From: Candidatus Fermentibacteraceae bacterium | GTDB lineage: Bacteria > Fermentibacterota > Fermentibacteria > Fermentibacterales > JCC-6 | NCBI GenBank assembly: GCA_041750285.1 | Contig: JBGSZS010000002.1 | Location: 76,910-140,909, forward strand | Length of the DNA: 64,000 nucleotides | Direction of reading: 5' to 3' | Shown here: positions 1,948-60,200 of the stretch, one piece after another | Numbering within the stretch: the stretch's first letter is position 1 | How the letters are laid out: each line of letters opens with the position of its first letter | Position numbers and translations under genes: made by a program | Notes under the pieces: generated by a model | Told to the model about the DNA's origin: nothing | Seen by the model: only the letters and a program-made list of their open reading frames with translations | Database searches by the model: none

Positions 1948-4320
1948 CTACCTGATGACCATCAGACCGGTGGTGGCGGTGAAGTCACCGGCGGTGATCC
2001 TGACCCTGTAGGCCCCGTTGGGAACCGGCGAGCCGGAGGGGCCGGCAAGGTCCCACGTGAGTGTGTGGGCGCCGGCGGGAAGCTCGCCCTGGTTGACGGT
2101 CGTTACCAGGCGTCCGCTGATGTCGTAGACCTGCATGCTCATGACAGCGGCTCCGGCCAGATCGACCGGGATCGAGACGATGGATGCAGCCGGGCTGGGA
2201 TAGGGCATTCCCACGCTGTTCTCGAACCCGGAGAGACCCTCGGCCGAGTGCTCGATCTCGGTGCCCGATACGGTGGCCGTTCCGAGGTAGGTCAGGTGGT
2301 TCTGCTTCCAGGCCGTGACGTACATGGTTCCAGTCGAGCCGGGGGTGGGGGTGAAGGTGGCCTGTCCCGATGCGTTGGTGGTGGCGACGAGGTAGACGTC
2401 GGCGGTCTCGAAGCTGGTGCCCTTGTAGAGTGTCACCCTTGCTCCGCTGACCGGAGAGCCTCCCGCAGTCACCGTAACGGTGAAGCTCCCGCCGGTGAAC
2501 GTGGAGGGGTGGGAGCCGCTGAGCTGGGTCGGGGATGCTGACCACAGCGGAAGTTCGGGGCAGCCGAAAAGGTTGTACTCCATGATGCACCAGTGACGGT
2601 AGGCATTCGATGGGGGACAGATGCTGTATCGGCCCATGAAGTGCATGGCGCCCAGTGTGCTCTGACCGCTGATGAAGTGGCTGTAGTAGATCTTCTGGCA
2701 GAGTATTTCGCTGTCGCCGTTCCCGGGGCTGCTGGGGTTCCCCCAGCCGTACCTGGCACATGCGCCTCCGAAACCCCCGCCGTTGACGTTCGATGTCCAT
2801 GCGTCGAGCATGCACTCGGTTCCGTCGAGGTGGCCGATGAGGCAGCTTATGCTGTTCCAGATCGCTGGAAGGCCGCCGGAAGAGATGTTCGTAAGGGCCA
2901 GAATGTTGCTGTTTGTGAAGCTGCCGCCGGGAACGCCGAACGACTGCTCGCTTCCGTGGGCGGCCACGTAGACATGGTGGGGGCCGGCGTTGAACATGGA
3001 GTTGGTTGCAGCCCAGTTGTTGGTTCCATTGGATTCGTAGCGCTTGTCCTGGCTCCAGTTTGCCGGGATGTAGCCCGATATGATCTACGCGCCCGCGCTG
3101 CCGTAGCACCCCGGCCATAGCATAGACGTGCTGTAGCCAATGCGCAGCTCACGTACCGCTGTTGTGGGCTCGTCGGAAAGCGAGACCTGCTCGTAGGCGA
3201 GGACCTTGTTCACGAAGGTGTTGGCCTCGGCTGCAGTGTTTACGCTGGCGCGGCCAGTGAAGATGGCGGGAGTGTAGCTCATCTGGTCTATGTTGTACTC
3301 GCCCCACACATTGTTGTTGTTGGAGTCCCACCGGTCGGCTGCCGGCGCGGTGTCGTTCAGATCGGACCAGTAGTAGTCGACAGGGGGATACTCGTTGTAG
3401 CCGCCGGCGCTGATCTTGACATCGCGCCCCGCGACCTTGTCGTCGTCGCCGAAGATGAGGGCGAACTCCACGCCATTGTCACTGGCTTCGTGGAGAAACA
3501 TCCTGATCTCATGCTGAAGGTCGTCACCGGTGTACTGGGCCTGGATCTCGGTGGTGGTTATCACTGTGGCGGGGATGCCCTTGCGGGTCTTCCAGTTTGC
3601 AAGCGTGTTGGCCTGGGCGACGTAGTCGGGGTGGGTGATGATGACGTACTCGCCGAAGGTGAGGTCACGGCTCTCCACTATGGCAGCACCGCTTGACAGG
3701 ACGTCTTCGGGGTTCACCACGGCGTTCCTGACGACATCGGAGGTCCGGGCTTCGCTCTGGGCGCTGCGAACCTGAACCGTCCTCATGGAGGGGTCGGCAA
3801 CATACTCGACGTGAAGAGTCACGCTTTCGAGCACTTCGATGGTTCCATCGGCCGGGTTCCAGCGAACCGGGTATACCGACACTCTGGCGACAGGAAATCC
3901 CAGAAGGACGCTGGAGTTCTCAAACCTGGCGATGGCGCCCGGGAAGGTCTCGGTGGAGTTGTAGATGCCTGGGTCGGGGCGTGGCATCGGGATGGTGGCG
4001 CCTTCCATGAGGCTCAGGGGAACCTGTTCGACGGCCGGAAGGATGTTGTACCTGCCCCTCAAAGGAGCGTAGGAGGCTTCGACGACCGAGACTGAAACCG
4101 CACGGCTCTCAGGGGGAAGCGCAACATGCACAGGCAGCACCGGGAGGGCCGGGGCTCCGATCGCTGAGAGCGGGTAGGTGGAAGGGGAGGAAACAGTCGT
4201 GTATCCCGCGAGATCAGTCATGGAAACCGAAGAACCATCGAACGGGACGGTTACGGTGAGTTCCCCGGCGAATGCCGTAGCCGAGGCGAGAATGACCAGC
4301 ATAACGATCTTCACAGCCAT
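1948..4320 (-). CDS. Peptidase C25 (gingipain-like) with propeptide and FlgD/T9SS-like C-terminal domain, interrupted by one in-frame TAG at 3085-3087 (read-through, nonsense mutation or sequencing error)
   Basis: Signal peptide, C25 propeptide (GAPALPV), EYVIIT..LANWKTRKG, DYYWSDL, TGRASV..FVNKVLAYE. After the TAG the same frame continues IISGYIPANW.. into catalytic AAHGS and NSISCLIG, EYNLFGCPEL, and a C-terminal YDISGRLVTTV..HTLTWD..PNGAY domain. Confidence 0.85.
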
Positions 4321-4363
4321 GAAGGCCTCCGTTTCATTTCAGGGTTCTGGAAACTGGTGTTTT

Positions 4364-4392
4364 TTTATAACTCTGCCATGATGGAAAAGCAA
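4364..4392 (-). promoter_or_regulatory. Putative sigma70 promoter of the C25 protease gene
   Basis: Minus strand TTGCTT (4392-4387), 17 nt, TATAAA (4369-4364); GGAGG RBS before the ATG at 4320. Confidence 0.5.
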
Positions 4393-4407
4393 TTGCTCCC
4401 ATTTGGA

Positions 4408-5016
4408 TTACCGCAGTGACGGCGTTTCCGTTAGGAGTTCGACTGCGGCGTTCCTGACCGGGAGCGAATCCCATGATGCGACGCGGGTCGACCAGACAAC
4501 TGTCTGCCCCCGGGTGAAAAGGTTCAGTGATGAGTCTCCCGCCGCGACGAACCAGGAAAAACCGAGGAAGTCGTCCGCCATGGCTGCCTGCTCGGCCATG
4601 GGAATGGCTCCGAGGTTTACGGGGTCGCCCCCGAAGGTGAAGCCTTCGTCCTCGAGGGGAAGAAGGAGCTTCTGGAAGTACTGGGCGAGCGCCCAGCCGT
4701 TCTCCCCGGGAAAAACTGAAACGCCGATCGAGACGGATGATTCCACCGGTCCGGCTTGAAGCTGCGTCCAGTCTATCCCGGTGCTGTCGACGGTTTCCAA
4801 GGCTTCGGGCGTCACGGCCAGGGTTTCCCCATTGTCCCTGACGACGTCCCAGATAAGCAGACCCGCCACCATTGCAGCGGCTCCGAGGGCAAGCCAGCCC
4901 TCGATGCTTTCGTCCGCCGAGTCAGAGGATGAACCGCTGCCCGATCCCGAGGGAAAGGCGCCTGCGGTGGTGGACACCAGGAACACCACCGCGAGGAGGA
5001 TTGCGCCCTGCTTCAC
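4408..5016 (-). CDS. Hypothetical exported/membrane protein
   Basis: GTG start overlapping the fusA stop (GTGA); signal peptide, Ser/Gly linker and one hydrophobic helix (WLALGAAAMVAGLLIW). Confidence 0.65.
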   Translation of the reverse strand: MKQGAILLAVVFLVSTTAGAFPSGSGSGSSSDSADESIEGWLALGAAAMVAGLLIWDVVRDNGETLAVTPEALETVDSTGIDWTQLQAGPVESSVSIGVSVFPGENGWALAQYFQKLLLPLEDEGFTFGGDPVNLGAIPMAEQAAMADDFLGFSWFVAAGDSSLNLFTRGQTVVWSTRVASWDSLPVRNAAVELLTETPSLR

Positions 5017-7061
5017 TGCTCGTCCGACTTGTATTCGGCCTGGATGCGATCCTGCACCTCTCTCGGAACAGGGTCGTAGTGGCTGAACTCCTGTGTGAAG
5101 CTGCCCCTGGCCTGCGTGAGGGAACGCAGTGAACTCGTGTACTGGTAAAGCTCGGCCTCGGGGACCAGGGCCTTGATGATCTGGAAAGCGCCCTGCCCCT
5201 CCATGCCCTGTATCTTTCCACGCCGGGAGTTGAGGTCACCCATGACGTCACCCATGAACTCTTCGGGCACCGTGACCTCGAGGGCCATGATCGGCTCGAG
5301 AAGGGTGGGTCCCGCCTGCATCATGACCTCCTGGAAGCACTTGCTTGAGGCGAGCTTGAACGCCATGTCCGATGAATCAACCGAGTGCGAGCTTCCATCG
5401 AAGACCACGGCCTTCACATCCACCACGCGGCTGCCGGATACCGGACCCTTGTGGAGGGTTTCGAGCACGCCCTTTTCCACCGCGGGTATGAACTTGGTGG
5501 GAACGGTCCCGCCGACAACCTCGCTGGTGAACTGGAAACCGGTTCCCCTGGGAAGCGGATCGAGCCTGAGGTAGACATGGCCGTACTGACCCCTGCCGCC
5601 GGACTGCTTCTTGTGCTTGTAGCTTCCCTGTGCGCTTTTCGAGATGGTCTCGTGGTAGGCGATCCGGGGCTTGAAGATCTCGGCGTCGACACCGGTGAGG
5701 TCTTTCAGGCGGTTGAGCATCGTGTTGAGATGAAGCTCGCCCATGCCGCTGACCGTGGTCTGGTTGATGTCGGGCTCCATGCGGGAGATGAATGTCAGGT
5801 CCATGCTGGCGAGCTTGTTGAGCCCAACGCCCATCTTGTCCTCCTCACCGCGTTTTTTCGGGGCGATGGCAGCCCTGTAGACGGGGTTGGGGAAGACGAT
5901 GGGGGTCAGTGTGATCCCGGCGGACTTGTCGGCGAGGGTGTCGTTGGTGGAGGTGTTCTTGAGCTTCGCAACGGCGATAATGTCGCCGCAGACCATGGAG
6001 GAGGCGTCCACCCGGTTCGGGCCGTGCATGTGGTAGTAGTTTCCAAGCCTTTCGCCCGAGTTCTTCTCCATGTTGTGCACTTCCTTCGAACCCTCAAGGG
6101 CGCCGCTCACCACCCTGATGTAGACCATTTCGCCGACATGTCTGTCCAGCTTGGTGCTGAAAGCCCTTGCGACGAACGGTCCCCTCGGGTTGGCCTGCAG
6201 AATGTCGCCGCCCTGAACCCTGGCGCCCCTGAATTCGAGGGCCGAAGGAATGCACTGCAGGATGCCGTCGAGCAGGGCTTCCTGGCCTGCGGCGGGAATC
6301 GCCACGCCGGCGAACAGCGGGAAGAGCCCCCTGCTGCTCACGGCCCCCCGGATTCCCCGGGCCAGTTCCTCCGGCGTGAGGCTGTCGTTGGCGAAGTACT
6401 GCTCCATGAGTTCTTCGTCGGCCTCGGCCGCCTGTTCCGTCAGCTCCGCCATGTATTCCTCGATCTTCTCGGCGGAACTGGCGGGAAGGGGAATCTCCTT
6501 TCCGGAGAGGTCGTAGGCCTTGCCCGTGAGAAGGTGCACCAGTCCCTTGCAGCCGTCGCTCTCCATGATGGGAAAGACGAAGGGGATGACCGCCTTGGAA
6601 AGCATTTCCCGGGCCTGGAGCAGGGCGCGTTCGAAGTCGGCGTTGTCGCGGTCCACACGGTTCACGAACAGCATGCAGGGAGTGTTCATCTCTTCCGCAT
6701 ACTTCCAGGTCTTGTACGAACCGACCTCGACGGCATCGGTGCAGTCAAGCACGATGAGGGCGCCGTCCGAGGCGCTTATCGCCGCAATGGTGTCGCCGTG
6801 GAAGTCTGCCAGCCCGGGAGTGTCGATGAGATTGATCTTGGTGTCGTTCCACTCGCAGATGCCAACGGTGGAAGTGAGACTGTGCTTTTTCTCGCGGCTT
6901 TCGGTCGTGTAGTCGAACAGGCTTGTACCGTCGTCCACGCTGCCCTGTCTTTCCGCTCCTCCCGAGCGAAAGACCAGCGAATCGCAAAGGCTTGTCTTGC
7001 CGACCGATCCGTGGCCGCAAACGGCTATCGTGCGAAGTTTGTCGGGGGTGTAGGTTTTCAT
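5013..7061 (-). CDS. fusA: Elongation factor G, EF-G2-like paralog
   Basis: GHGSVGKT (G1), DTPG, NRVD, MGELHL, HKKQSGGRGQYG, DGSSHSVDSSDMAF, LLEPIM, LRSLTQARG. Lacks the canonical RGITI switch-I motif and is outside the str operon. Start reassigned to the ATG at 7061 (GGAG RBS). Confidence 0.93.
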   Translation of the reverse strand: MKTYTPDKLRTIAVCGHGSVGKTSLCDSLVFRSGGAERQGSVDDGTSLFDYTTESREKKHSLTSTVGICEWNDTKINLIDTPGLADFHGDTIAAISASDGALIVLDCTDAVEVGSYKTWKYAEEMNTPCMLFVNRVDRDNADFERALLQAREMLSKAVIPFVFPIMESDGCKGLVHLLTGKAYDLSGKEIPLPASSAEKIEEYMAELTEQAAEADEELMEQYFANDSLTPEELARGIRGAVSSRGLFPLFAGVAIPAAGQEALLDGILQCIPSALEFRGARVQGGDILQANPRGPFVARAFSTKLDRHVGEMVYIRVVSGALEGSKEVHNMEKNSGERLGNYYHMHGPNRVDASSMVCGDIIAVAKLKNTSTNDTLADKSAGITLTPIVFPNPVYRAAIAPKKRGEEDKMGVGLNKLASMDLTFISRMEPDINQTTVSGMGELHLNTMLNRLKDLTGVDAEIFKPRIAYHETISKSAQGSYKHKKQSGGRGQYGHVYLRLDPLPRGTGFQFTSEVVGGTVPTKFIPAVEKGVLETLHKGPVSGSRVVDVKAVVFDGSSHSVDSSDMAFKLASSKCFQEVMMQAGPTLLEPIMALEVTVPEEFMGDVMGDLNSRRGKIQGMEGQGAFQIIKALVPEAELYQYTSSLRSLTQARGSFTQEFSHYDPVPREVQDRIQAEYKSDEQ

Positions 7062-7132
7062 TGGGCACTCCTGGGTTTTAGCTTGGATATCTATAAGTAA
7101 AATATAATTACCGCTTTTGTAACGGGAACACA

Positions 7133-7162
7133 ATATTACCGCTTCAACGGGATGCCTGTCAA
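7133..7162 (-). promoter_or_regulatory. Putative sigma70 promoter of fusA
   Basis: Minus strand TTGACA (7162-7157), 18 nt, TAATAT (7138-7133), in an AT-rich intergenic region. Confidence 0.5.
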
Positions 7163-7201
7163 CGCCATTCCGATCCATCGTCACGGGCAACCACGGAGAG
7201 A

Positions 7202-7501
7202 GTGATGAGCGGACTTCTCGAGACCCTTCCAGTAGCCGGCGCTGTTGCGGCGGGAGCCTTCGTGCTGCTCCGCGCGTTCCGGGAGCTGTTTGGGGGAACC
7301 AGCCGGCAGGACGCCTACAGGCGCATGAACCAGGAGTACGAAAAAAAGAGGATCACCGGCAGGAATACCCCCAAATGCCCCCTTTGCGGCGGCTTCACTG
7401 AAAAGGTGCCTTACAGGTTCATAAGCGTCTGGCGGTGTATCCGCTACCCCGAATGCAGGGGATTCGTAAGGGCGAAGAGGGGCAAACCCCGCTTCAGGTA
7501 G
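7202..7501 (+). CDS. Small membrane-anchored protein with C4 zinc ribbon (topoisomerase zinc-finger-like)
   Basis: N-terminal hydrophobic helix, then CPLCGG..WRCIRYPECRGF. Confidence 0.65.
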   Translation: MMSGLLETLPVAGAVAAGAFVLLRAFRELFGGTSRQDAYRRMNQEYEKKRITGRNTPKCPLCGGFTEKVPYRFISVWRCIRYPECRGFVRAKRGKPRFR

Positions 7502-7590
7502 GCAAACGGTCTGGTGTTGCTGTTGCTTTCACCAGTTCGAACCGGGGTTCCTGCTCGTCGGGAACAGAAACGGAAATCGGAGCAGCTCAA

Positions 7591-9666
7591 GTGCAACAGG
7601 ATGGCAGAATAACTTCCCACCCCATATTGCCCTCTCCGGAAGGGAAATGGGTTCGATTCCTCCTCAACGGCAGAGAATGCATCGGGCGTGAGGGGGAAAT
7701 GGTTTCATCGGCGGTGTTCGCCACAGGTCAGAGGGTTTTCGGCCACCATCCCAAAGATGGCTCCCCGCAGGGGCTTTTCTGTGCAAACGGTCAGTGTTCC
7801 CAGTGTACCCTGGTGATTGACGGCGTCGCAAGGAAAAGCTGCATTACGCCCCTCGTGGAAGGGATGCGGGTGTGCACGCTCGAAGGTCTTCCCGAACTCG
7901 GAATGGCTTCCCGTGAGATCGTGAAGCCGCCGGTTTCGATCGAAACCGATGTTCTGGTGATAGGCGCCGGTCCGGCAGGGATGGCAGCTGCCGACGAGAT
8001 GGGCAGCGCCGGTCTCGGTGTCATCCTTGTCGATGACAAGGACAGGCCCGGCGGCAAGCTCGTTCTTCAGACGCACAAGTTCTTTGGTTCAGTTGCGGAC
8101 TGCCACGCGGGAACAAGGGGCGTGCGGATAGCGGAAATGCTTTCAGGGAGCCTGGCCGCCCACCCATCGGTCAAGGTCTGGCTTTCCTCGACGGTTCTCG
8201 CGGTGTTCAGCGACGGGGTCGTGGGGATCCAGCGGCCGGAGGGCTATGCCATGGTCAGGCCCAGGCGTCTGCTCGTGGCTGCCGGCGCCCGCGAGAAGTC
8301 CCTTCCGTTTCCGGGGTGCACACTCCCGGGAGTTTACGGCGCCGGAGCCTTCCAGACCCTTGTGAACCGTGACCTGATAAGATGCAGTTCCCGGATCTTC
8401 ATCCTTGGCGGGGGCAACGTCGGGCTCATAGGGGCCTACCACGCCCTGCAGGCTGGGATGACCGTCGTGGGGATAGCCGAGGGGGCTGCCCGCTGCGGCG
8501 GCTACAAGGTCCACGCGGACAAGATCAGAAGGATGGGAGTGCCGATATACACGGGACACTCGGTGATCTCCGCCCATGGCGGCGAAAAGCTTGAAGCCGT
8601 TACCCTCTGCGCCGTTGACCCGGCTTTCCGCAGCATTCCCGGCACTGAGAAGAGCTTTGCCGTCGACACTCTCCTCGTGGCCGTGGGGCTCAATCCAGTG
8701 AACGAGTTCCACACCAGGGCCGTGGAGTTCGGCATGGATTCCAGACTTGCCGGAGACGCCGAAGAGATAGCGGAAGCGAGCGCGGCGATGTTCGGCGGAA
8801 GGATAAGGGGCAGGGAGATCGCCTGCGAGCTTGCCCCGTCAACCGCTGCCTGTCCCGTGGACTGGTCCGGGAAGGCCATGATCCTCAAGAGCCCCGGGGG
8901 CGAAGTTCTGCCGTATTCCCCTCCCGGCCTTCAAACCGGTGTGTTCCCCGTGCTCCACTGCACTCAGGAGATACCCTGCAATCCGTGCATGACATCCTGT
9001 CCGAAAGACCTCATAGGCACCTCCGGCCACCCCATACTCGGAGTTCCGGAGTACTCCGGCGGATGCATCGGCTGCAGGAAATGCGTTGCTGTATGTCCGG
9101 GGCTGGCGGTCACCCTGGCGGACTTCCGTCGTGACCCCCTGAATCCCACGGTGACGCTTCCCTGGGAGTTCTCCGACGACCTCCTGAAATCCGGCGAAAC
9201 AGTGGAAGTCATGGACTGGGAGGGGGAATCGCTGGGCGGGGGCAGGGTTCTGGGAATCAAACCTGCGCCCGGCTATCCCGGGACCCGGCTGCTCGACCTC
9301 ATCGTCGATTCCGCCATCGCTGACCGGGTGGCGGGTGTCAGGGTTCAGAAGGCCACGGTCACGCTTCCACTGGACAAGCCCCTCGCGACCATTCCCGCAG
9401 ACGATGCCGTGGTGTGCCGGTGCGAAAGGGTCACCGCCGGCGAGATCAGGGCACTTCTCCGAAACGGCGTGCGCGACATGAACCAGCTGAAGGCGCTCAC
9501 AAGGGCGGGTTTCGGCGCCTGCGGGGGAAAGACCTGCAGAACCCTCATTGAATCGGTGATCCGATCCGAGGGCATCCCGCCGGATGAGGTCACGGGCTTC
9601 ACCGAAAGACCGCTGTTCGCCGAGGTGGAACTGGGCCATTTCGCCGGCCCGGGGGAGGATGCGTAA
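7591..9666 (+). CDS. Sarcosine oxidase/proline dehydrogenase alpha-like flavo-iron-sulfur protein (2Fe-2S + FAD/NAD + 4Fe-4S + BFD-like domains)
   Basis: FCANGQCSQC, GAGPAG, GGGNVG, CTQEIPCNPCMTSCP, CIGCRKCVAVCP, VCRCERV..GACGGKTC; probable GTG start at 7591 after GGAG. Confidence 0.85.
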   Translation: MQQDGRITSHPILPSPEGKWVRFLLNGRECIGREGEMVSSAVFATGQRVFGHHPKDGSPQGLFCANGQCSQCTLVIDGVARKSCITPLVEGMRVCTLEGLPELGMASREIVKPPVSIETDVLVIGAGPAGMAAADEMGSAGLGVILVDDKDRPGGKLVLQTHKFFGSVADCHAGTRGVRIAEMLSGSLAAHPSVKVWLSSTVLAVFSDGVVGIQRPEGYAMVRPRRLLVAAGAREKSLPFPGCTLPGVYGAGAFQTLVNRDLIRCSSRIFILGGGNVGLIGAYHALQAGMTVVGIAEGAARCGGYKVHADKIRRMGVPIYTGHSVISAHGGEKLEAVTLCAVDPAFRSIPGTEKSFAVDTLLVAVGLNPVNEFHTRAVEFGMDSRLAGDAEEIAEASAAMFGGRIRGREIACELAPSTAACPVDWSGKAMILKSPGGEVLPYSPPGLQTGVFPVLHCTQEIPCNPCMTSCPKDLIGTSGHPILGVPEYSGGCIGCRKCVAVCPGLAVTLADFRRDPLNPTVTLPWEFSDDLLKSGETVEVMDWEGESLGGGRVLGIKPAPGYPGTRLLDLIVDSAIADRVAGVRVQKATVTLPLDKPLATIPADDAVVCRCERVTAGEIRALLRNGVRDMNQLKALTRAGFGACGGKTCRTLIESVIRSEGIPPDEVTGFTERPLFAEVELGHFAGPGEDA

Positions 9667-55269: not shown

Positions 55270-56198
55270 GGAAGGCACTCTGGGCCGTCATTCTTGGAGT
55301 GGCGGTCTACACCGCGCTGGTGCTCAGGTCCGATGTGGCAAGGGTGGGCCGGGCCGTCTCCGCGATCCATCCGGCATGGATCCCGGTCTTCCTGGCGCTT
55401 CCCCTCGCGAACTACTTCCTCAGGTTCCTGAAGTGGCACTACTTCCTGCACAGGGTCGGGGTCTTCCTCCCGAGGGGCGAGAGCATGGCGGTTTTCATCG
55501 CCGGCTTCTCGATGACGGTGTCGCCCGGAAAGTTCGGCGAGCTTGTGAAATGCGTCATACTGAGGGAAAGGCGGGGAGTGCCGGTATCCACTACGAGCCC
55601 CGTGGTGGTGGCAGAACGTATCACCGACCTTCTCAGCATGGTGTGCCTGGCCGCTGCCGGTGCGGCCCTGTCAGGGGGAGGGGCGGTGCTTCCCGCCATC
55701 GCCGCCGGTGTGGTATTCGTATCGTCGGCCATGATCTTCCTTCTCTGGACCCCTGCGTGGAGGCTGGCAGCCCGGACAGCCGCCCGGCTCCCCCTCCTGA
55801 GAACGAGGACTTCTGCCCTCGAAGCTTTCAGGCAGTCCGCCATCACCCTTCTGGACTTCAGAAGCATGCTTGTCTCGGTGCCCCTCGGGATTCTGGGATG
55901 GGGTCTCGAAGCACTTGTCCTGTGTGCCGTGGCAGCCTCGATGGGGGTTTCCCTTCCTGCGGGAGTCGCGCTGCTCAGTCACGCTGCGGGCACCATTGCC
56001 GGCGCAGTGAGCATGATCCCCGGAGGGCTGGGACTGACCGAGCTGACGATAGACGGGATCCTGGGCGGCTCGATGGATCACGCCCAGGCGGCTGTCACCA
56101 CCCTGCTCATGCGGTTCTGTACGCTGTGGTTCGGAGTCCTGCTGGGGCTTTCGTTCATTGCCGTGCAGGGAAGAATAAAATCAGACAAAACCGCATGA
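55266..56198 (+). CDS. Lysylphosphatidylglycerol synthase TM domain / UPF0104 flippase-like protein
   Basis: LRFLKW, SPGKFGELVK, ERITD, PGGLGLTE, RFCTLW. Confidence 0.88.
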   Translation: MRKALWAVILGVAVYTALVLRSDVARVGRAVSAIHPAWIPVFLALPLANYFLRFLKWHYFLHRVGVFLPRGESMAVFIAGFSMTVSPGKFGELVKCVILRERRGVPVSTTSPVVVAERITDLLSMVCLAAAGAALSGGGAVLPAIAAGVVFVSSAMIFLLWTPAWRLAARTAARLPLLRTRTSALEAFRQSAITLLDFRSMLVSVPLGILGWGLEALVLCAVAASMGVSLPAGVALLSHAAGTIAGAVSMIPGGLGLTELTIDGILGGSMDHAQAAVTTLLMRFCTLWFGVLLGLSFIAVQGRIKSDKTA

Positions 56199-56236
56199 CT
56201 GCGGCGGGCAATGTGCCGGTTGCCGGCGGAATGGAT

Positions 56237-56485
56237 CTACAGGCCTTCGCTTACTGCGTCGGGATCGAGGAGCCGCCCGGGGCTGCTCTTGTTGAACAGC
56301 GAGACCCCGAAGGGACCTGAACCGGAAATGCACTGGTTCGGGGGGCCGGGGCCTGGTCCTGCGCTGCAGTCAGGCCCTGTTCCGGGTCCGCCGCCGCCGG
56401 CGCACCTGGCATGCCAGCCCATTCCGCCGGCACTGGACAAGCCCTGCAGCTCTGGTTTCGTGTATTTTTCAGGAAAGACTGTCAT
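56237..56485 (-). CDS. Putative RiPP precursor peptide (YxxPxL leader, 3x CxxGxGP core)
   Basis: KYTKPEL leader; C28, C40 and C52 at exact 12-residue spacing; last gene of an RRE/rSAM cassette. Confidence 0.8.
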   Translation of the reverse strand: MTVFPEKYTKPELQGLSSAGGMGWHARCAGGGGPGTGPDCSAGPGPGPPNQCISGSGPFGVSLFNKSSPGRLLDPDAVSEGL

Positions 56486-56528
56486 CGCAAGATACGCATC
56501 CTTTCAGAACCATTCACAATGCAATATC

Positions 56529-56924
56529 CTAATGCCATCGCAACCTTCTGACAATGGCGCAATGAACCTTCACCGCGAACTTTGGAACGTGAACCGCCCA
56601 CACTGCCCTTCGGCGCGGCGAGCCGTACTTCCGCCGTCTCAGTACACCGGTTACTACCGGCAGGTCATCGGATTGTTCCAGAAGCAGCGGAGCGTCCCTT
56701 CCCGAACGGTCCCCCGCGGTGAAAAGAAGAACGCGACCGTCTTTCTTAACGGTTCTCAGCACCCTGTGAACGATCGGTTCTCCCGATTCGTGACCGAGAA
56801 CCACGACCTGCCCTGGAAGGACTTCATGGACCGGCTGCCTCTCGGCCCTGAGAATGTCGCCGGGTATCAGGGCCGGCCACATCGAAAGCCCCCTCACGAA
56901 GCCCCTCAGTGTTTCCGCAGCCAT
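56529..56924 (-). CDS. S24/S26-family peptidase lacking a membrane anchor (putative leader peptidase)
   Basis: VRGLSMWPALIPGD, IVHRV, TAGD. Confidence 0.8.
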   Translation of the reverse strand: MAAETLRGFVRGLSMWPALIPGDILRAERQPVHEVLPGQVVVLGHESGEPIVHRVLRTVKKDGRVLLFTAGDRSGRDAPLLLEQSDDLPVVTGVLRRRKYGSPRRRAVWAVHVPKFAVKVHCAIVRRLRWH

Positions 56925-57433
56925 TTTCGGATCAGATGGTCCGGGTCATCCGCCCCTCTTCGCAGAACAACCGCTGGATGACTGTTGAACAGGCTTTCCG
57001 TGAAAGCCCTGGCAGCGGTCCCCACCTGGCGGGGAACCATGTCGAGGACCATCAGGGAGCCCGTCCTCTCAGCCCTGTAGAAGCCGTAGGATGGCGTGAC
57101 CGGGATAAGCGCAGGTGAACCCTTCTCAAGAAGTACGATCCCGGAGAGGACCGCCGGCCGGATGTCGAAGTCTCCCGTCTTCATCCTGTGCGCTCCGCAG
57201 GGAAGGGTCCTCACGACGCCGTCGGTGCCCCGGGCCACGACAACCGTGTCGTCTCCGATCAGGCGCCAGCCCAGCGTCGCCAGGTGATAGGCCACGGTTG
57301 TCTTTCCGCCGTTCGAGGGGGCCAGGAACAGGACGGACCTGTCTTCAAGGGCTGCGGCAGCTCCGTGAAAAAGGGCGCCGACGGGGCAGACCGCCATCAG
57401 TTGCGCCCGCAGCAGGGACCTTCGGTTATCCAT
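56906..57433 (-). CDS. HPr-kinase/PEPCK-like P-loop protein (ScmC-like)
   Basis: FHGAA..LFLAPSNGGKTT..IGDD; ATG at 57433 overlaps the upstream stop region. Confidence 0.75.
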   Translation of the reverse strand: MDNRRSLLRAQLMAVCPVGALFHGAAAALEDRSVLFLAPSNGGKTTVAYHLATLGWRLIGDDTVVVARGTDGVVRTLPCGAHRMKTGDFDIRPAVLSGIVLLEKGSPALIPVTPSYGFYRAERTGSLMVLDMVPRQVGTAARAFTESLFNSHPAVVLRRGADDPDHLIRKWLRKH

Positions 57434-58484
57434 GGGTTCTCGACTCGGGGAAGAGCCCCAGCCGGTCCGCCAGATCGCAGAACCTGTGGGGGGAGGCGAA
57501 GCTGCCCCCGACAGAGTAGTTCTCCATAACGCACTTGCCCAGGCATGAGTTCGAATGGACGCACCGGGAACAGATGCCCCGGTCATGCTCCCGAAGGTCC
57601 CTTCGAAGCTCGGCGAGGAGGGGGGAGTTTTCCCAGATGTCCTTCAGCCTCTTTTCGGGCCAGGTTCCCATCGCGAGCCGGGGCAGGCTGTAGGCTATTC
57701 CACAGAACGACACGGTACCGTCGGGAAGGATACCCAGAAGGTTGAGAACGGAGCATCTGCCAGTGGACGCGAGCCTGTTCACGGGGATGAAGGCATGCGG
57801 TGCGTCGGGTATCACGCAGGATGGATACTCGCTGAAGACCCATTGCAGGAACTCGATCGATTCCGAGATGTGATCGGGATCGGCGAAATGGGAGGACGCC
57901 CCCCTGCCCACCGGTGTGATCAGGTTGATCTTCAGCGAAGACACGCCGCTGCCCTCGAGAAAGGCCACCATGTCGGCCACGGCCTTCCTGTCCGGCCGGC
58001 TGACCGACATTATTACCTGCGGGTTTACGGAAGCCCCTGAAACAAGCCCGTTGATGAAGCCGACAGTTCTGCGCCATGAGCCTTCGACACCCCTGAACGC
58101 ATCATGGACACCCGGGCGGCTCGAATCGAGGCTGACCGACACCTGGTACGGGGGCATCTCCTCCAGCAGGCTGAAGAGCCCGGGATGTGTCACTGTGCCG
58201 TTGGTTTCGAATGCCACTTCCGGGAAGATGCCGTGGGCGATCCTGTAGAGGTCGGGAAAACGGGGATGGAGGAGGGGTTCGCCGCCGGTGAACTTTGCGA
58301 AGCGTGCTCCCATGTCCGCGGCTTCCCGCATGACCGCCTCCCACGAGGGCACATCCATGGACGAACCCGCCACTCCCTCGTTGACCCAGCAGTGGGCGCA
58401 GTGAAGGTTGCACCCCGGATATGGATTCAGGTAGATGTTGCTCAGTTCAGGGATCTGAGCTCTTCCACAAGGTTCCTCAGGCAA
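57426..58484 (-). CDS. Radical SAM/SPASM protein (ScmF-like); start uncertain
   Basis: GCNLHCAHCW, KFTGGEPLLHP, ETNG, HDAFRG; SPASM CSVLNLLGILPDG..C, CSRC..CLGKC..C. Confidence 0.88.
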   Translation of the reverse strand: MPEEPCGRAQIPELSNIYLNPYPGCNLHCAHCWVNEGVAGSSMDVPSWEAVMREAADMGARFAKFTGGEPLLHPRFPDLYRIAHGIFPEVAFETNGTVTHPGLFSLLEEMPPYQVSVSLDSSRPGVHDAFRGVEGSWRRTVGFINGLVSGASVNPQVIMSVSRPDRKAVADMVAFLEGSGVSSLKINLITPVGRGASSHFADPDHISESIEFLQWVFSEYPSCVIPDAPHAFIPVNRLASTGRCSVLNLLGILPDGTVSFCGIAYSLPRLAMGTWPEKRLKDIWENSPLLAELRRDLREHDRGICSRCVHSNSCLGKCVMENYSVGGSFASPHRFCDLADRLGLFPESRTHG

Positions 58485-59485
58485 GAAATTTCATCCCTTC
58501 CCGTTGGCTCGCCCCGCAGAAGGGGGTTGACCGGGCAACCGCCCGGGCAGACGTCAAGGTATTCACAAAGCCCGCAAAAGGGATTTTCATCCCTTCGAGC
58601 CGCCAGTAACGAAAGGAACCGGGCGGCTCCCTCCGATGCAATGATTGTGTTCAGGGTCTGGTCGGGCAGCCGTCCCAGTACGAAGTCATCGAGGTAGTCG
58701 CAGGGGATGACACTGCCGTCGGCCGCCACTGCGATCTTTCCGGTACAGCCCCCGCAACTGAAAGCCCTGCCGCCGGTTCGCTCAGTCCTCCCGTCAAGGG
58801 CGTCCTGCGCCATGCGGGTGAGGTCCGGAAGGGGACCGTATACGCGGGGGTCTCCCAGTTCCAGCAGGTCTCGTCCCGCCTTCACGAGACCAGCCAGGTC
58901 GCCGTGGAACCCGTCCGGAACGGCGCACTGGGCGGCGAGTACCGGTGTGAACTTGGCTCCGCCTACCCCCAGGTCATCGAGTGCGAACCTGGCCGTCTCG
59001 ATCACCCTGTCATGGTTCAATCTGGTGACCGTGCAGTTTATGATGACGGGAAGACCTGCCTGGACAGCCCGCCGAATGCCCGCAACAGCCCTCCTGAAAA
59101 CTCCCGCACCCCTGAGGGCATCGTGGGTTGCCGCGTCGGGACCGTCGAGCCCGGCCATTATCATGGCAAGCCTCGGACCGGCGCTTCCCAGCAACGCAGC
59201 CGTTTCGGTCGCAAGAAGAGTGGCGTTGGTGTTCAGCGAAAACCTGAAGGGCCTTTCGGCGATCAACCTCACGAAGTCCCCGAAATCCCGTCTTGCCAGG
59301 GGCTCGCCGCCTGACACGACGAGTTCCAGCACCTTCGCTTCCACCAGTCTGTCGAGGATCTTCTCCCATGTGGATAATGGAAGGTCTTCGCCCGGTGGTC
59401 TGACCCCGCAGTGGGTGCATGAGAGGTTGCAGCGCCCGGTGATGAGAACGGTGGCAGTTCTGGGAGCCAGAGTGACTTCCGTCAC
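58442..59485 (-). CDS. Radical SAM/SPASM protein (ScmE-like)
   Basis: APR..ITGRCNLSCTHC, SGGEP, HDALRG; SPASM CGG..ADGSVIPC, CGLCEYLDVCPGGC..C. Confidence 0.88.
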   Translation of the reverse strand: MTEVTLAPRTATVLITGRCNLSCTHCGVRPPGEDLPLSTWEKILDRLVEAKVLELVVSGGEPLARRDFGDFVRLIAERPFRFSLNTNATLLATETAALLGSAGPRLAMIMAGLDGPDAATHDALRGAGVFRRAVAGIRRAVQAGLPVIINCTVTRLNHDRVIETARFALDDLGVGGAKFTPVLAAQCAVPDGFHGDLAGLVKAGRDLLELGDPRVYGPLPDLTRMAQDALDGRTERTGGRAFSCGGCTGKIAVAADGSVIPCDYLDDFVLGRLPDQTLNTIIASEGAARFLSLLAARRDENPFCGLCEYLDVCPGGCPVNPLLRGEPTGRDEISCLRNLVEELRSLN

Positions 59486-59733
59486 TCAATGACTCCGTTT
59501 TGGCGAAGCTGGTCCAGGAAGTCGTCAAGGTCCCGCTCGATCCCGGGTTGTTCGGGGTAGCTTTCGCGCAGGCGGGCCAGGATGTCCTCCCTGGAAGAGC
59601 GTTCGTCGATCAACGAGCAGATCGCCACGGCGACTTCCTCCACTATCTGAAGGGCACCGCTGTTGACGTTGAACAGGATGCCGCCTTCTGGCTCCCGGCG
59701 AAACACAACACCAGTGGCGAATGAGAGTTTCAT
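59482..59733 (-). CDS. PqqD-family RiPP recognition element (ScmD-like)
   Basis: 83 aa: VVFRREPEGGILFN..G..AICSLID..ILARL..Y..IERDLDDFLDQLRQNGVI. Confidence 0.88.
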   Translation of the reverse strand: MKLSFATGVVFRREPEGGILFNVNSGALQIVEEVAVAICSLIDERSSREDILARLRESYPEQPGIERDLDDFLDQLRQNGVIE

Positions 59734-59810: not shown

Positions 59811-60200
59811 ATGAGGATCAGCATCGCCTTTGCGTTTTGTCTTTCCTTTATCGCCATGGGATACGGGCTTTCCGAAGGCTCGTTCAACCTTCTCAACCCG
59901 CCCTCGTTCGGGGGTCAGGGTTTTCGGAACTTTCACAGCACTGCAAGCTTCAGCCTTGTATCGGGCTCGGGTGGATCCTGGGGCCAGGGCGCGTACGTGG
60001 GAACGATGAATTTCTCGCTGCATCCCAAGGTCACCGCGCTCGTCGACCTCGGCTACGCCCGCACCTTCGATTTCTCCGGCGGCGGGAACTTCGGCCACCT
60101 GCTCGGCGGGGTGCAGTTCCAGTGGAAACCCACCGACGGCAGCACCTTTGTCCTCCAGTACAACGGCGTGATACCCACGGGGCGTATCGAAGGGTTTTAG
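59811..60200 (+). CDS. Small exported beta-strand protein
   Basis: Signal peptide, alternating beta-strand pattern; upstream TTGTGT-17-TAATAT and GGAGGGAAGGA RBS. Confidence 0.7.
   Translation: MRISIAFAFCLSFIAMGYGLSEGSFNLLNPPSFGGQGFRNFHSTASFSLVSGSGGSWGQGAYVGTMNFSLHPKVTALVDLGYARTFDFSGGGNFGHLLGGVQFQWKPTDGSTFVLQYNGVIPTGRIEGF

Follow-up and report, generated by a model that had tools for sequence, protein, structure and literature searches.

A compact six-gene RiPP cassette in Fermentibacteria, most likely a reduced and divergent branch of the SynChlorMet family

We found that six minus-strand genes in the genome of an uncultured Candidatus Fermentibacteraceae bacterium probably form a self-contained RiPP maturation operon, a reduced and divergent SynChlorMet branch that would cross-link, phosphorylate and trim a Cys-bearing peptide. 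The support comes from family models, conserved catalytic motifs, predicted folds and the conservation of both the precursor peptide and the chromosomal slot among relatives.

Results

Organization of the locus

The cassette occupies positions 56237–59733 of the window, the 64,000-nucleotide stretch of DNA analysed here, and consists of six minus-strand ORFs. The features are as follows.

59482..59733, minus strand, PqqD-family RiPP recognition element (RRE), 83 aa, ScmD-like (PF05402)
58442..59485, minus strand, radical SAM/SPASM enzyme 1, 347 aa, ScmE-like (best NCBIfam match TIGR04250)
57426..58484, minus strand, radical SAM/SPASM enzyme 2, 352 aa, ScmF-like (best NCBIfam match TIGR04251)
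56906..57433, minus strand, HprK-like P-loop protein, 175 aa (motifs and predicted fold, with sub-threshold HMM scores)
56529..56924, minus strand, putative anchor-less S26B-type leader peptidase (archaeal/ER-type signal peptidase I-like), 131 aa (motifs and predicted fold, with a sub-threshold HMM score)
56237..56485, minus strand, precursor peptide, 82 aa (conservation after the peptidase gene in relatives)
56526..56554, minus strand, promoter-like site TTGTCA-17-TAGGAT, in the end of the peptidase gene and upstream of the precursor (consensus match only)
56190..56205, minus strand, terminator-like hairpin with a T-run after it, immediately 3′ of the precursor stop codon (consensus match only)

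Four overlaps chain the first five genes, as the earlier note had described. The pqqD gene starts with ATG, with GGGAGA 7 nt upstream; the first radical SAM gene starts with GTG in a 4-nt GTGA overlap, the second with TTG in a 43-nt overlap, and the HprK-like gene with ATG in an 8-nt overlap (the start of its longest ORF would be 57586). The peptidase gene overlaps its predecessor by 19 nt, and a 43-nt gap separates it from the 82-aa ORF. Neither type of regulatory signal exceeds chance, with one promoter-like site against 0.7 expected in shuffles and three terminator-like hairpins in the region against 4.0 expected. Pfam and NCBIfam searches matched none of the six genes to transporter or nucleotidyltransferase families, the absence of which the earlier note had also pointed out.

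Relation to the SynChlorMet models

The SynChlorMet cassette, which we take to be the set of NCBIfam/TIGRFAM models TIGR04248–TIGR04252 (ScmD, ScmC, ScmE, ScmF and ScmA), yielded no laboratory study in our literature searches. The NCBIfam cut-offs are 400 bits for ScmE and ScmF, 100 for ScmD, 125 for ScmC and 35 for ScmA, and all five models score below them at the locus, so that none of the five memberships can be assigned. Nevertheless, ScmE (147.5 bits) and ScmF (229.8 bits) are the best NCBIfam matches of the two radical SAM enzymes. ScmA gave no match to the 82-aa peptide at E ≤ 10, and a whole-genome search with it misses the locus; the peptide of one relative with a cassette of the same compact type (type A), L053, scores 19.9 bits. 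Profile–profile alignment (hhalign) of the precursor with ScmA-like peptides, which combine a YxxP leader with CxxG repeats, gave a probability of 96% (E 4.5e-9). In a further relative, L106, ScmF reaches 432.1 bits, an ScmA-like peptide directly follows scmF and an S26 gene lies downstream. The match to SynChlorMet that had been claimed from the letters, and for which an HMM search was the proposed check, was therefore right in kind and too strong in degree: judged by sequence, the cassette is a divergent relative and not a member by NCBIfam's rule.

The encoded proteins

The earlier note had also read the genes as encoding an RRE, two radical SAM/SPASM enzymes, an ScmC-like protein reduced to its P-loop domain, a soluble, anchor-less signal-peptidase-like protein and a precursor with a YxxPxL-type leader, and these assignments agree with what we found. 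The PqqD protein scores 46.5 bits against PF05402 (cut-off 23.4), which places it in the PqqD/RRE family; against ScmD it reaches 19.0–19.5 bits, and generic PqqD models score higher. V10, F11, R12, E14, P15, G17, G18, I19 and F21 are among the residues invariant in 18 type A copies. A modelled complex with precursor residues 1–32 gave a median ipSAE of 0.49 over three runs, compared with 0.01 for the best of three controls, with contact agreement between runs of at least 92% and partner pLDDT of at least 55. Of 157 solved complexes, 116 pass the mark applied, as do 2 of 215 mismatched pairs, and an ipSAE of 0.60 or below was found for just 18 of those 157 solved complexes but for both mismatches that passed. 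The prediction lends weak support to a PqqD–leader complex, and its pass may mean only a likeness to known complexes, because RRE–leader complexes have already been solved.

Both radical SAM enzymes match PF04055 and PF13186 above the cut-offs (86 and 32.1 bits for the ScmE-like enzyme, 71 and 30.5 bits for the ScmF-like enzyme). Each carries the CxxxCxxC motif, as CNLSCTHC and CNLHCAHC respectively, together with both SPASM motifs that supply the auxiliary-cluster cysteines of radical SAM/SPASM maturases. These motifs are present in 17/17 type A copies of the ScmF-like enzyme and in 14/15 ScmE-like copies, the sole miss (L055) being an ORF call that starts ~30 residues late. In a quick tree, enzyme 1 was placed in the ScmE-side clade, and the E and F clades each divide into a compact type and a canonical-like type with branch supports of 90–100; from this parallel split it follows that the two enzymes were kept as a pair. 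Among solved radical SAM structures, the nearest relative of both is SkfB (E 6e-12 and 3e-14), a likeness that says nothing specific about their chemistry. Two related cassettes, L052 and L054, lack the ScmE-like enzyme and keep similar peptides, which counts against a simple account of how the two enzymes share the work.

The HprK-like protein gave weak sequence matches to HprK_rel_A (E 3e-5), to ScmC (14.2 bits, E 0.02, in the P-loop region only) and to PF07475 (17.2 bits, cut-off 33.3). Among its 18 copies, H23, G43, K44, D62, G69, D71, R75, P78, E103, Y116 and R120 are invariant, and S40, G42, T46, D61 and T70 are retained in at least 90%. The best Foldseek match of an AF2 model (pLDDT 92.2) is the catalytic domain of Lactobacillus casei HprK/P (1kkl, 1jb1; E 2e-6, probability 1.00), with a TM-score of 0.47–0.50 over 171 aligned columns and targets of 161–168 residues. 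The P-loop, the Asp-Asp pair, the upstream His and the predicted fold are thus those of the HprK/P type, with HMM scores below cut-off, and by the model the protein is the catalytic domain only, without an N-terminal domain.

The peptidase has no Pfam match, and its score against TIGR02228 (sigpep_I_arch; E 4.9e-8, 33 bits) falls below the cut-off of 51.85 for S26B signal peptidase I. All 22 copies compared, from both cassette types, carry G12, S14, M15, H53, R54, G71 and D72. Its AF2 model (pLDDT 92.5) is closest in Foldseek to the human SEC11 subunit (7p2q_A; E 4e-3, 30% identity; TM-score 0.57 to 7p2p_A), followed by LexA and SpsB; no match reached E 1e-3 or better. The predicted fold therefore presents S14, H53 and D72 as a Ser/His/Asp set on an S24/S26 scaffold. 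Hydropathy gives no sign of a hydrophobic anchor, with a 19-residue peak of 1.34 compared with 2.34 in a neighbouring membrane protein. The S26 and HprK assignments thus combine sub-threshold HMM scores, motifs and predicted folds.

The precursor leader reads F4-P-E-K-Y8-T-K-P11-E-L13...G23-W24-x-A26, and in the core C28, C40 and C52 are each followed by x-x-G. M1, F4, Y8, P11, L13, G23, W24, A26, C28 and C40 are invariant across 19 peptides, and the C-terminal tail LLDPDAVSEGL is conserved.

Discussion

In the proposed pathway, the 82-aa peptide would first bind the PqqD-type protein through its leader, in which the motif F-P-E-x-Y-x-K-P-x-L is observed. The ScmE-like and ScmF-like enzymes would then act on the core, most likely forming thioether bridges to other residues from the invariant C28 and C40 and, in this copy, C52, with a change of −2 Da each, as the maturases of sacti- and ranthipeptides suggest. 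The HprK-like protein would phosphorylate the peptide on Ser or Thr, a step that we propose because the catalytic residues are retained and because HprK-like kinases serve the lasso and linear polyphosphorylated peptide (LPP) pathways. Finally, the anchor-less peptidase with Ser14/His53/Asp72 would remove the leader with help from the recognition protein. By analogy with the LPP peptidase LppS, which is reported to cut after F-E-T (PMC13381572), the cut would most likely fall after W24-x-A26, and the core would then begin x-Cys.

The third of these steps faces an alternative that is unlikely but deserves serious attention, namely that the peptide is not a substrate of the HprK-like protein, which could instead act as an NTP-dependent scaffold or on another substrate. 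Because the 19 precursors share no invariant Ser or Thr, the target of a kinase is not evident; the N-terminal domain of the 300–323-aa ScmC-like proteins is also missing, and the HMM matches are confined to the P-loop region. However, the Walker A lysine, the D61–D62 pair and His23 are kept in the 18 copies, the model covers the entire HprK/P catalytic domain, and HprK-like kinases are reported (PMC13381572) to phosphorylate LPP and paeninodin-type lasso precursors. We continue to favour phosphorylation of the peptide.

Radical SAM/SPASM enzymes carry out many chemistries, and we doubt, without dismissing the idea, that those encoded here do something other than thioether formation, such as a C–C or C–O cross-link to Trp24 or epimerisation, with the cysteines serving as disulfides or metal ligands. 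Trp24 is invariant in 19/19 type A precursors, and the matches of the ScmE-like enzyme include NF050035, a model for WgkB-type cross-linking maturases, which ranks second for canonical-like ScmE proteins. On the other hand, ScmA-like relatives hold I, W, F or other residues at the Trp24 position, Cys-x-x-Gly units are their repeated, conserved feature, and Trp24 would lie in the leader if cleavage follows W-x-A. These observations count against such a chemistry.

The position of the cassette bears on the role of its product. The genes on both sides are plus-strand: upstream they encode PBP1A, a TPR protein and LPG_synthase_TM, and downstream a 129-aa protein of no assigned family, a TPR protein and SecA. 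Both flanks carry the same genes in 13/17 distinct type A cassettes, three more retain only the flank with the 129-aa and TPR proteins, and one is a second-site copy that shares neither. The canonical-like cassettes L059 and L063, which come from another family within the phylum, sit in the same slot. The genes, coordinates and strands of the earlier note were correct, but its word "inserted" misleads: the cassette keeps one chromosomal position across several genera and so is not a recent insertion. This slot among envelope and secretion genes (PBP1A, TPR, LPG_synthase_TM, SecA), kept across genera and shared by two families, together with the lack of an exporter or immunity gene among the six in Pfam and NCBIfam searches and a peptide profile that matches in 38/70 genomes of the phylum, would suit a factor that is inherited vertically and stays with the cell (part of the envelope, for example, or a cofactor-like peptide, compare PQQ and mycofactocin) better than a secreted antimicrobial. 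We nevertheless regard such a factor as unlikely, given that core length and Cys number (2–5) vary and L012 has an internal duplication, as is typical of natural-product RiPPs and not of cofactors, that the second-site copy (L048) adjoins a 599-aa ABC-type protein (assigned by reading its sequence), and that the ScmF-like gene is absent from 20/70 genomes (E ≤ 1e-30). More speculative still, and improbable on present evidence, is a multi-thioether phosphopeptide whose slot has been kept since before the Fermentibacteria families diverged, as a lineage-wide physiological component (for instance an envelope-bound or cofactor-like peptide) and not a dispensable antibiotic. If this were true, the RRE–kinase–signal-peptidase module would show that a single ancestral toolkit lies behind both LPP- and lasso-type leader processing and radical SAM RiPPs.

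That the 82-aa ORF is merely a chance frame in G+C-rich DNA, with the enzymes' substrate encoded elsewhere, is highly improbable and effectively refuted: the ORF has no Pfam or NCBIfam family and 13 nt separate its ATG from the Shine-Dalgarno-like GAAAGGA, but in 5/5 fetched related loci the gene after the peptidase encodes a homologue of the peptide (identity down to 45%) with leader and Cys residues invariant, an exhaustive profile search of 1.84 billion representatives returned 47 clusters at E ≤ 1e-3, the profile recurs across the phylum, and the peptide is homologous to those that follow scmF elsewhere. The ORF is a real gene, and similar peptides do accompany orthologous cassettes, the absence of which the earlier note would have counted against it.

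Among known systems, what lasso peptides have in common with the cassette is limited to an RRE and the leader motif, with no match to a macrolactam synthetase or B2 cysteine peptidase among the six proteins. The GeoRSP/HPr-rel-A systems (TIGR04302, 04303, 04352, 04353, 04355), compared by database model names only, contain an HprK-related kinase and PqqD, to which GeoRSP, again judged by NCBIfam model name only, adds a radical SAM/SPASM enzyme. HprK_rel_A, HprK_rel_B, PqqD_rel_X and GeoRSP_rSAM are weak matches at the locus, but all their scores fall far short of the cut-offs (23 bits against 200, 97 against 400), and ScmE and ScmF score higher. Sacti- and ranthipeptide systems resemble the cassette in their radical SAM/SPASM enzymes with full auxiliary-cluster motifs, RRE and Cys-containing core, and the SkfB, StsB, AlbA and PapB models are among the weaker matches. 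They differ in that the cassette devotes two paralogous maturases to one peptide, has its RRE as a separate protein and includes a kinase as well as a signal-peptidase-like leader peptidase; its scores against characterised maturases fall far short of the cut-offs.

The LPP clusters of Bacillota, as described by Popov et al. (Nat Commun 2026; PMC13381572), offer an experimentally shown module of recognition protein, kinase and peptidase. There, the kinase phosphorylates core Ser3, and LppS (Ser29/His68/Asp93) cuts only with the RRE present. The catalytic Ser–His spacing is 39 residues in both systems, and the proposed W-x-A cut agrees with an aromatic residue at −3 and a small one at −1. The LPP core set makes a linear product with five components (RRE, HprK-like kinase, SpI-like peptidase, NTP transferase and MsbA-like exporter), of which only the first three are found here. 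In addition, LPP clusters contain no radical SAM enzyme, a term that does not occur in the paper, and their peptides are linear, whereas two such enzymes are present here, the Ser3 position is not conserved in the Fermentibacteria precursors, and the hosts belong to different phyla. The cassette thus joins an RRE–kinase–peptidase module of the LPP type to two radical SAM enzymes.

The closest resemblance is to SynChlorMet, a family already catalogued in databases, of which the compact cassette is a stripped-down branch. The two share the order PqqD–ScmE–ScmF, an HprK-like protein, a precursor homologous to ScmA-like peptides (YxxP leader, C-x-x-G units) and S26-like peptidases, which accompany 23/40 canonical-like cassettes in a metagenome sample (counting only those with at least 2.5 kb after scmF). 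In contrast, the kinase-like protein has 175 aa here compared with ~300–320 and the peptidase 131 aa compared with ~199, the NTP_transf_5 gene present in canonical-like L056 (PF14907) is absent, the precursor lies at the 3′ end instead of directly after scmF, and the peptide carries two features that ScmA-like peptides lack, namely the G-W-x-A-x-C junction and the conserved tail at its C terminus.

Gene layout

The Scm cassette family is already catalogued in NCBIfam, and the cassette in the window is a compact version of it. Its six minus-strand genes lie, exactly to the base, where the earlier note had placed them from the sequence alone.

Genes of the cassette, listed from the PqqD gene onward
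59482-59733, minus: PqqD-type recognition protein (RRE); ATG start, GGGAGA 7 nt upstream
58442-59485, minus: radical SAM/SPASM enzyme 1; GTG start, 4-nt GTGA overlap
57426-58484, minus: radical SAM/SPASM enzyme 2; TTG start, 43-nt overlap
56906-57433, minus: P-loop protein; best start the ATG at 57433, 8-nt overlap
56529-56924, minus: signal-peptidase-like protease; 19-nt overlap
56237-56485, minus: precursor, an 82-codon ORF preceded by a 43-nt gap

The flanking genes on both sides are on the plus strand: PBP1A, a TPR protein and an LPG_synthase_TM protein upstream, and a 129-aa protein without a family, a TPR protein and SecA downstream. The host genome (2.55 Mb, 23 contigs, 95% complete) has as its nearest public relatives MAGs labelled Candidatus Fermentibacteria / Hyd24-12. 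The sequencing runs listed as containing it comprise five of DNA, one of which may be the source sample, and none of RNA. Scans of the cassette region returned one promoter-like and three terminator-like sites, neither above shuffle expectation. The promoter-like site is sigma-70-like (TTGTCA-17-TAGGAT, 56526-56554, minus), falls within the final stretch of the peptidase gene and, though no better than the shuffle expectation, could serve as a separate promoter of the precursor gene.

Relatives and genomic slot

ScmF-like genes occur in 50 of the 70 genomes of the phylum (E ≤ 1e-30), and annotation of 25 enlarged loci revealed two architectures. Type A, the window's own, has the order PqqD, E (ScmE-like), F (ScmF-like), short kinase, short peptidase, precursor. 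In type B, PqqD, E and F are followed by the precursor, then by an HprK-like protein of ~310 aa and last by a 199-aa peptidase. Its scores come nearer to the Scm models, with 334 bits for ScmE and 367 bits for ScmF; an NTP_transf_5 gene lies alongside the type B cassette L056. In a quick maximum-likelihood tree of 46 E and F sequences, which omits the two ScmF-like fragments and the intact ScmE-like gene of locus L011 as well as the duplicate locus L045, E stood apart from F (support 100), and type A stood apart from type B within both enzymes (supports 98, 99, 99 and 90). Because the same split appears in E and in F, the two maturases have been inherited together as a pair.

Individual loci depart from this pattern. 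L011, from a related MAG, has its ScmF-like gene broken into overlapping ORFs of 133 and 294 aa (5902-7054, plus), through a frameshift or else a fault of assembly; the remaining cassette is intact, as are its two precursor genes. Two type A loci (L052:4738-7316 and L054:4753-7578) consist of PqqD, F, kinase, peptidase and precursor without an ScmE-like enzyme, and their peptides retain G-W-x-A-x-C and further cysteines, with a variant tail end (...DYMQQTE...).

The earlier note had described the cassette as inserted into its surroundings, a reading that we dropped. There is no clear G+C step at the borders (~0.58-0.66 inside, 0.60-0.66 outside) and the slot is conserved across type A loci, so the cassette is no recent insertion. 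Of the 17 distinct type A loci, 13 are flanked by the LPG_synthase_TM gene and, at the opposite end, by the 129-aa/TPR genes, three (L049, L053 and L055) retain the 129-aa/TPR side only, and one, the second-site copy L048, has neither flank. The type B cassettes L059 and L063, from another family of the phylum, occupy the same slot as type A. The 129-aa protein (59811-60200, plus; a divergent neighbour of the PqqD gene) has a hydrophobic N-terminus, matches no Pfam family and lies beside the cassette in 16 of the 17 type A loci.

The L048 locus (3683-8753) comes from another genus and has a 599-aa protein, assigned as ABC-type by sequence reading, convergent to the peptidase gene; no precursor was found in its surroundings, and the precursor match in that genome is on a different contig. 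L059 and L063 are canonical-like and both encode the long form of the ScmC-like protein. In L059 this is joined by a 199-aa peptidase and a tandem pair of precursor genes (4372-4605 and 4720-4977, minus); an S26 search of the L063 locus gave no match.

Beyond the phylum's genomes, a metagenome scan with the ScmF alignment yielded 529 confirmed stretches, of which the best 80 comprised 77 type B-like and three type A loci. Among the 40 type B-like loci of these best 80 that have at least 2.5 kb after scmF, 25 contain a strict precursor candidate ([YW]xxP leader, at least three Cys and at least two CxxG units), 23 an S26 match and 15 an HprK-like match, all under-counts because the phmmer queries were single sequences. 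Locus L106 exceeds the NCBIfam cut-off for ScmF (432 bits) and has an ScmA-like peptide directly 3' of scmF, with an S26 match downstream. Three other metagenome loci (L084:5844-6218, L108:6179-6538 and L124:5048-5392) encode much longer ScmA-like peptides, of 113-124 aa, with 12-15 cysteines, some of them in CC pairs and some in a Cys-rich C-terminal end.

The precursor peptide and its kinship with ScmA

Similar peptides beside orthologous cassettes were part of the test that the earlier note had set. Each of the five loci first fetched has a homologous small ORF 3' of its peptidase gene, and two of these loci have two copies. Across 19 precursors, drawn from 15 loci and the window, M1, F4, Y8, P11, L13, G23, W24, A26, C28 and C40 are invariant. 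The leader, F-P-E-x-Y-x-K-P-x-L-x-x-L, contains the YxxPxL-type motif that had been named at the outset, and is followed by the junction G-W-x-A-x-C and a core whose number of Cys ranges from two to five across relatives. Each Cys of the window's peptide is followed by x-x-G (C28-AGG, C40-SAG, C52-ISG). The conserved C-terminal tail, [LF]-[ILF]-[DNT]-[PS]-[DEG]-x-[VILMY]-x-x-[GST]-L, is specific to type A and reads LLDPDAVSEGL in the window. In one precursor (L012:7982-8260, plus) a 17-residue unit, NCSAGPSTPNT[IV]CVFLS, occurs twice in tandem, so that it has five Cys rather than three; duplication of units seems to be how the core evolves.

Word-seeded searching of 5.8 billion proteins with the initial alignment of seven peptides recovered eight, and exhaustive profile searching with the alignment of 19 peptides recovered 47 clusters among 1.84 billion representatives (E ≤ 1e-3). 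The 19-peptide profile matches in 38 of the 70 genomes of the phylum, including 26 of 46 high-quality genomes, and in eight of its 14 genera.

NCBIfam holds a precursor model, ScmA (TIGR04252), which does not match the window's peptide; it gives sub-threshold matches to some ScmA-like peptides (22.5 and 19.5 bits) and to the type A peptide of L053 (19.9 bits). When the type A profile was compared with a profile of 20 ScmA-like peptides, the probability was 96% (E 4.5e-9, 48 columns), and leader aligned on leader and Cys on Cys. Judged by these profiles, the window's precursor is homologous to the ScmA-like peptides.

Recognition protein and radical SAM enzymes

The PqqD protein scores above its Pfam threshold (46.5 bits versus 23.4). 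Using the PqqD alignment, we modelled its complex with precursor residues 1-32 in three runs with three controls, and obtained a median ipSAE of 0.49 against 0.01 for the best control, with at least 92% contact agreement among the runs and partner pLDDT of at least 55. The passing mark was met by 116 of 157 solved complexes and two of 215 mismatched pairs; an ipSAE of 0.60 or lower holds only 18 of the 157 solved complexes plus both passing mismatches, and the result was graded as weak support. Since RRE-leader complexes have already been solved, the pass may reflect mere likeness to them.

Both radical SAM enzymes exceed the PF04055 and PF13186 cut-offs and carry CxxxCxxC and both SPASM cysteine motifs. 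The proposed correspondence with the Scm set holds in that their best NCBIfam matches are ScmE (enzyme 1, 147.5 bits) and ScmF (enzyme 2, 229.8 bits), but both scores fall below the cut-off of 400. A sequence search of solved structures with the two enzymes returned generic relatives only, SkfB being the best.

Kinase-like protein and protease

The P-loop protein matches HprK-related models and ScmC across the P-loop stretch only (E 3e-5 to 0.02). In 18 copies H23, G43, K44, D62, G69, D71 and R75 are invariant, and S40, G42, T46, D61 and T70 are conserved in at least 90%. Its AlphaFold2 model (pLDDT 92.2) aligns from end to end with crystal structures of the L. casei HprK/P catalytic domain (probability 1.00, E 2e-6), with 171 aligned columns against HprK/P targets of 161-168 residues. 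By this predicted fold the protein is an entire kinase domain that lacks the N-terminal domain which ScmC-like proteins have.

The protease scores 33 bits against the archaeal signal peptidase I model, below the cut-off of 51.85, and retains G12-x-S14-M15, H53-R54 and G71-D72 in all 22 copies. Its structure model (pLDDT 92.5) has the human SEC11 subunit as its best match (30% identity, E 4e-3), with LexA and SpsB next; no match fell below 1e-3. Only 13 residues precede the catalytic Ser, leaving no room for a membrane anchor, and the maximum 19-residue hydrophobic window is 1.34, versus 2.34 in a neighbouring membrane protein; the enzyme is thus anchor-less, as had been claimed.

Discussion

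The gene set, its intact catalytic motifs, the conserved precursor with its ScmA-like homology and the co-inherited maturases frame a probable pathway. The RRE would bind the precursor leader, as the complex model weakly suggests, and the radical SAM enzymes would form thioethers at conserved Cys. The HprK-like protein may phosphorylate the peptide, with T36 or its neighbours as candidate sites, although the target is not evident because no Ser or Thr is invariant among the precursors. Leader removal would probably depend on the RRE. No exporter is encoded within the cassette.

Within 3.5 kb, six genes encode the substrate together with its recognition protein, both radical SAM enzymes, a kinase reduced to the catalytic domain and a leader peptidase of 131 aa. 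The cassette is therefore a minimal test system, among the smallest constructs for solving the chemistry of the whole Scm family, and comparison of its relatives yields testable predictions concerning the leader motif, W-x-A cleavage, the invariant Cys28 and Cys40 and the conserved C-terminal tail. In CC-licensed full text from PMC and bioRxiv we found nothing naming the Scm family, its TIGR accessions or its chemistry, and nothing pairing an HprK-type kinase with a SPASM enzyme.

The closest comparison is with the linear polyphosphorylated peptides (LPP) of Bacillota (Popov et al. 2026, PMC13381572). The LPP kinase polyphosphorylates Ser3 of the core, and the peptidase (S29/H68/D93), of a kind that the authors call previously undescribed in RiPP pathways, cuts after F-E-T only when the RRE is present; the RRE/HprK-kinase/signal-peptidase module was demonstrated experimentally only in 2026. 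The window encodes the same three-protein module, and the Ser-His spacing of the peptidase is 39 residues in both. The window's junction W24-x-A26 resembles F(-3)-E(-2)-T(-1) of the LPP, and type B peptides have [F/L/P]-x-G before [I/W/F]-C at the equivalent position. On this basis we predict a cut after A26, which would leave a core starting x-Cys, with G23 as the alternative point of cleavage. PMC13381572 mentions no radical SAM enzyme, whereas the window has two, and its cassette would unite radical SAM cross-linking with RRE/HprK-kinase/signal-peptidase leader processing.
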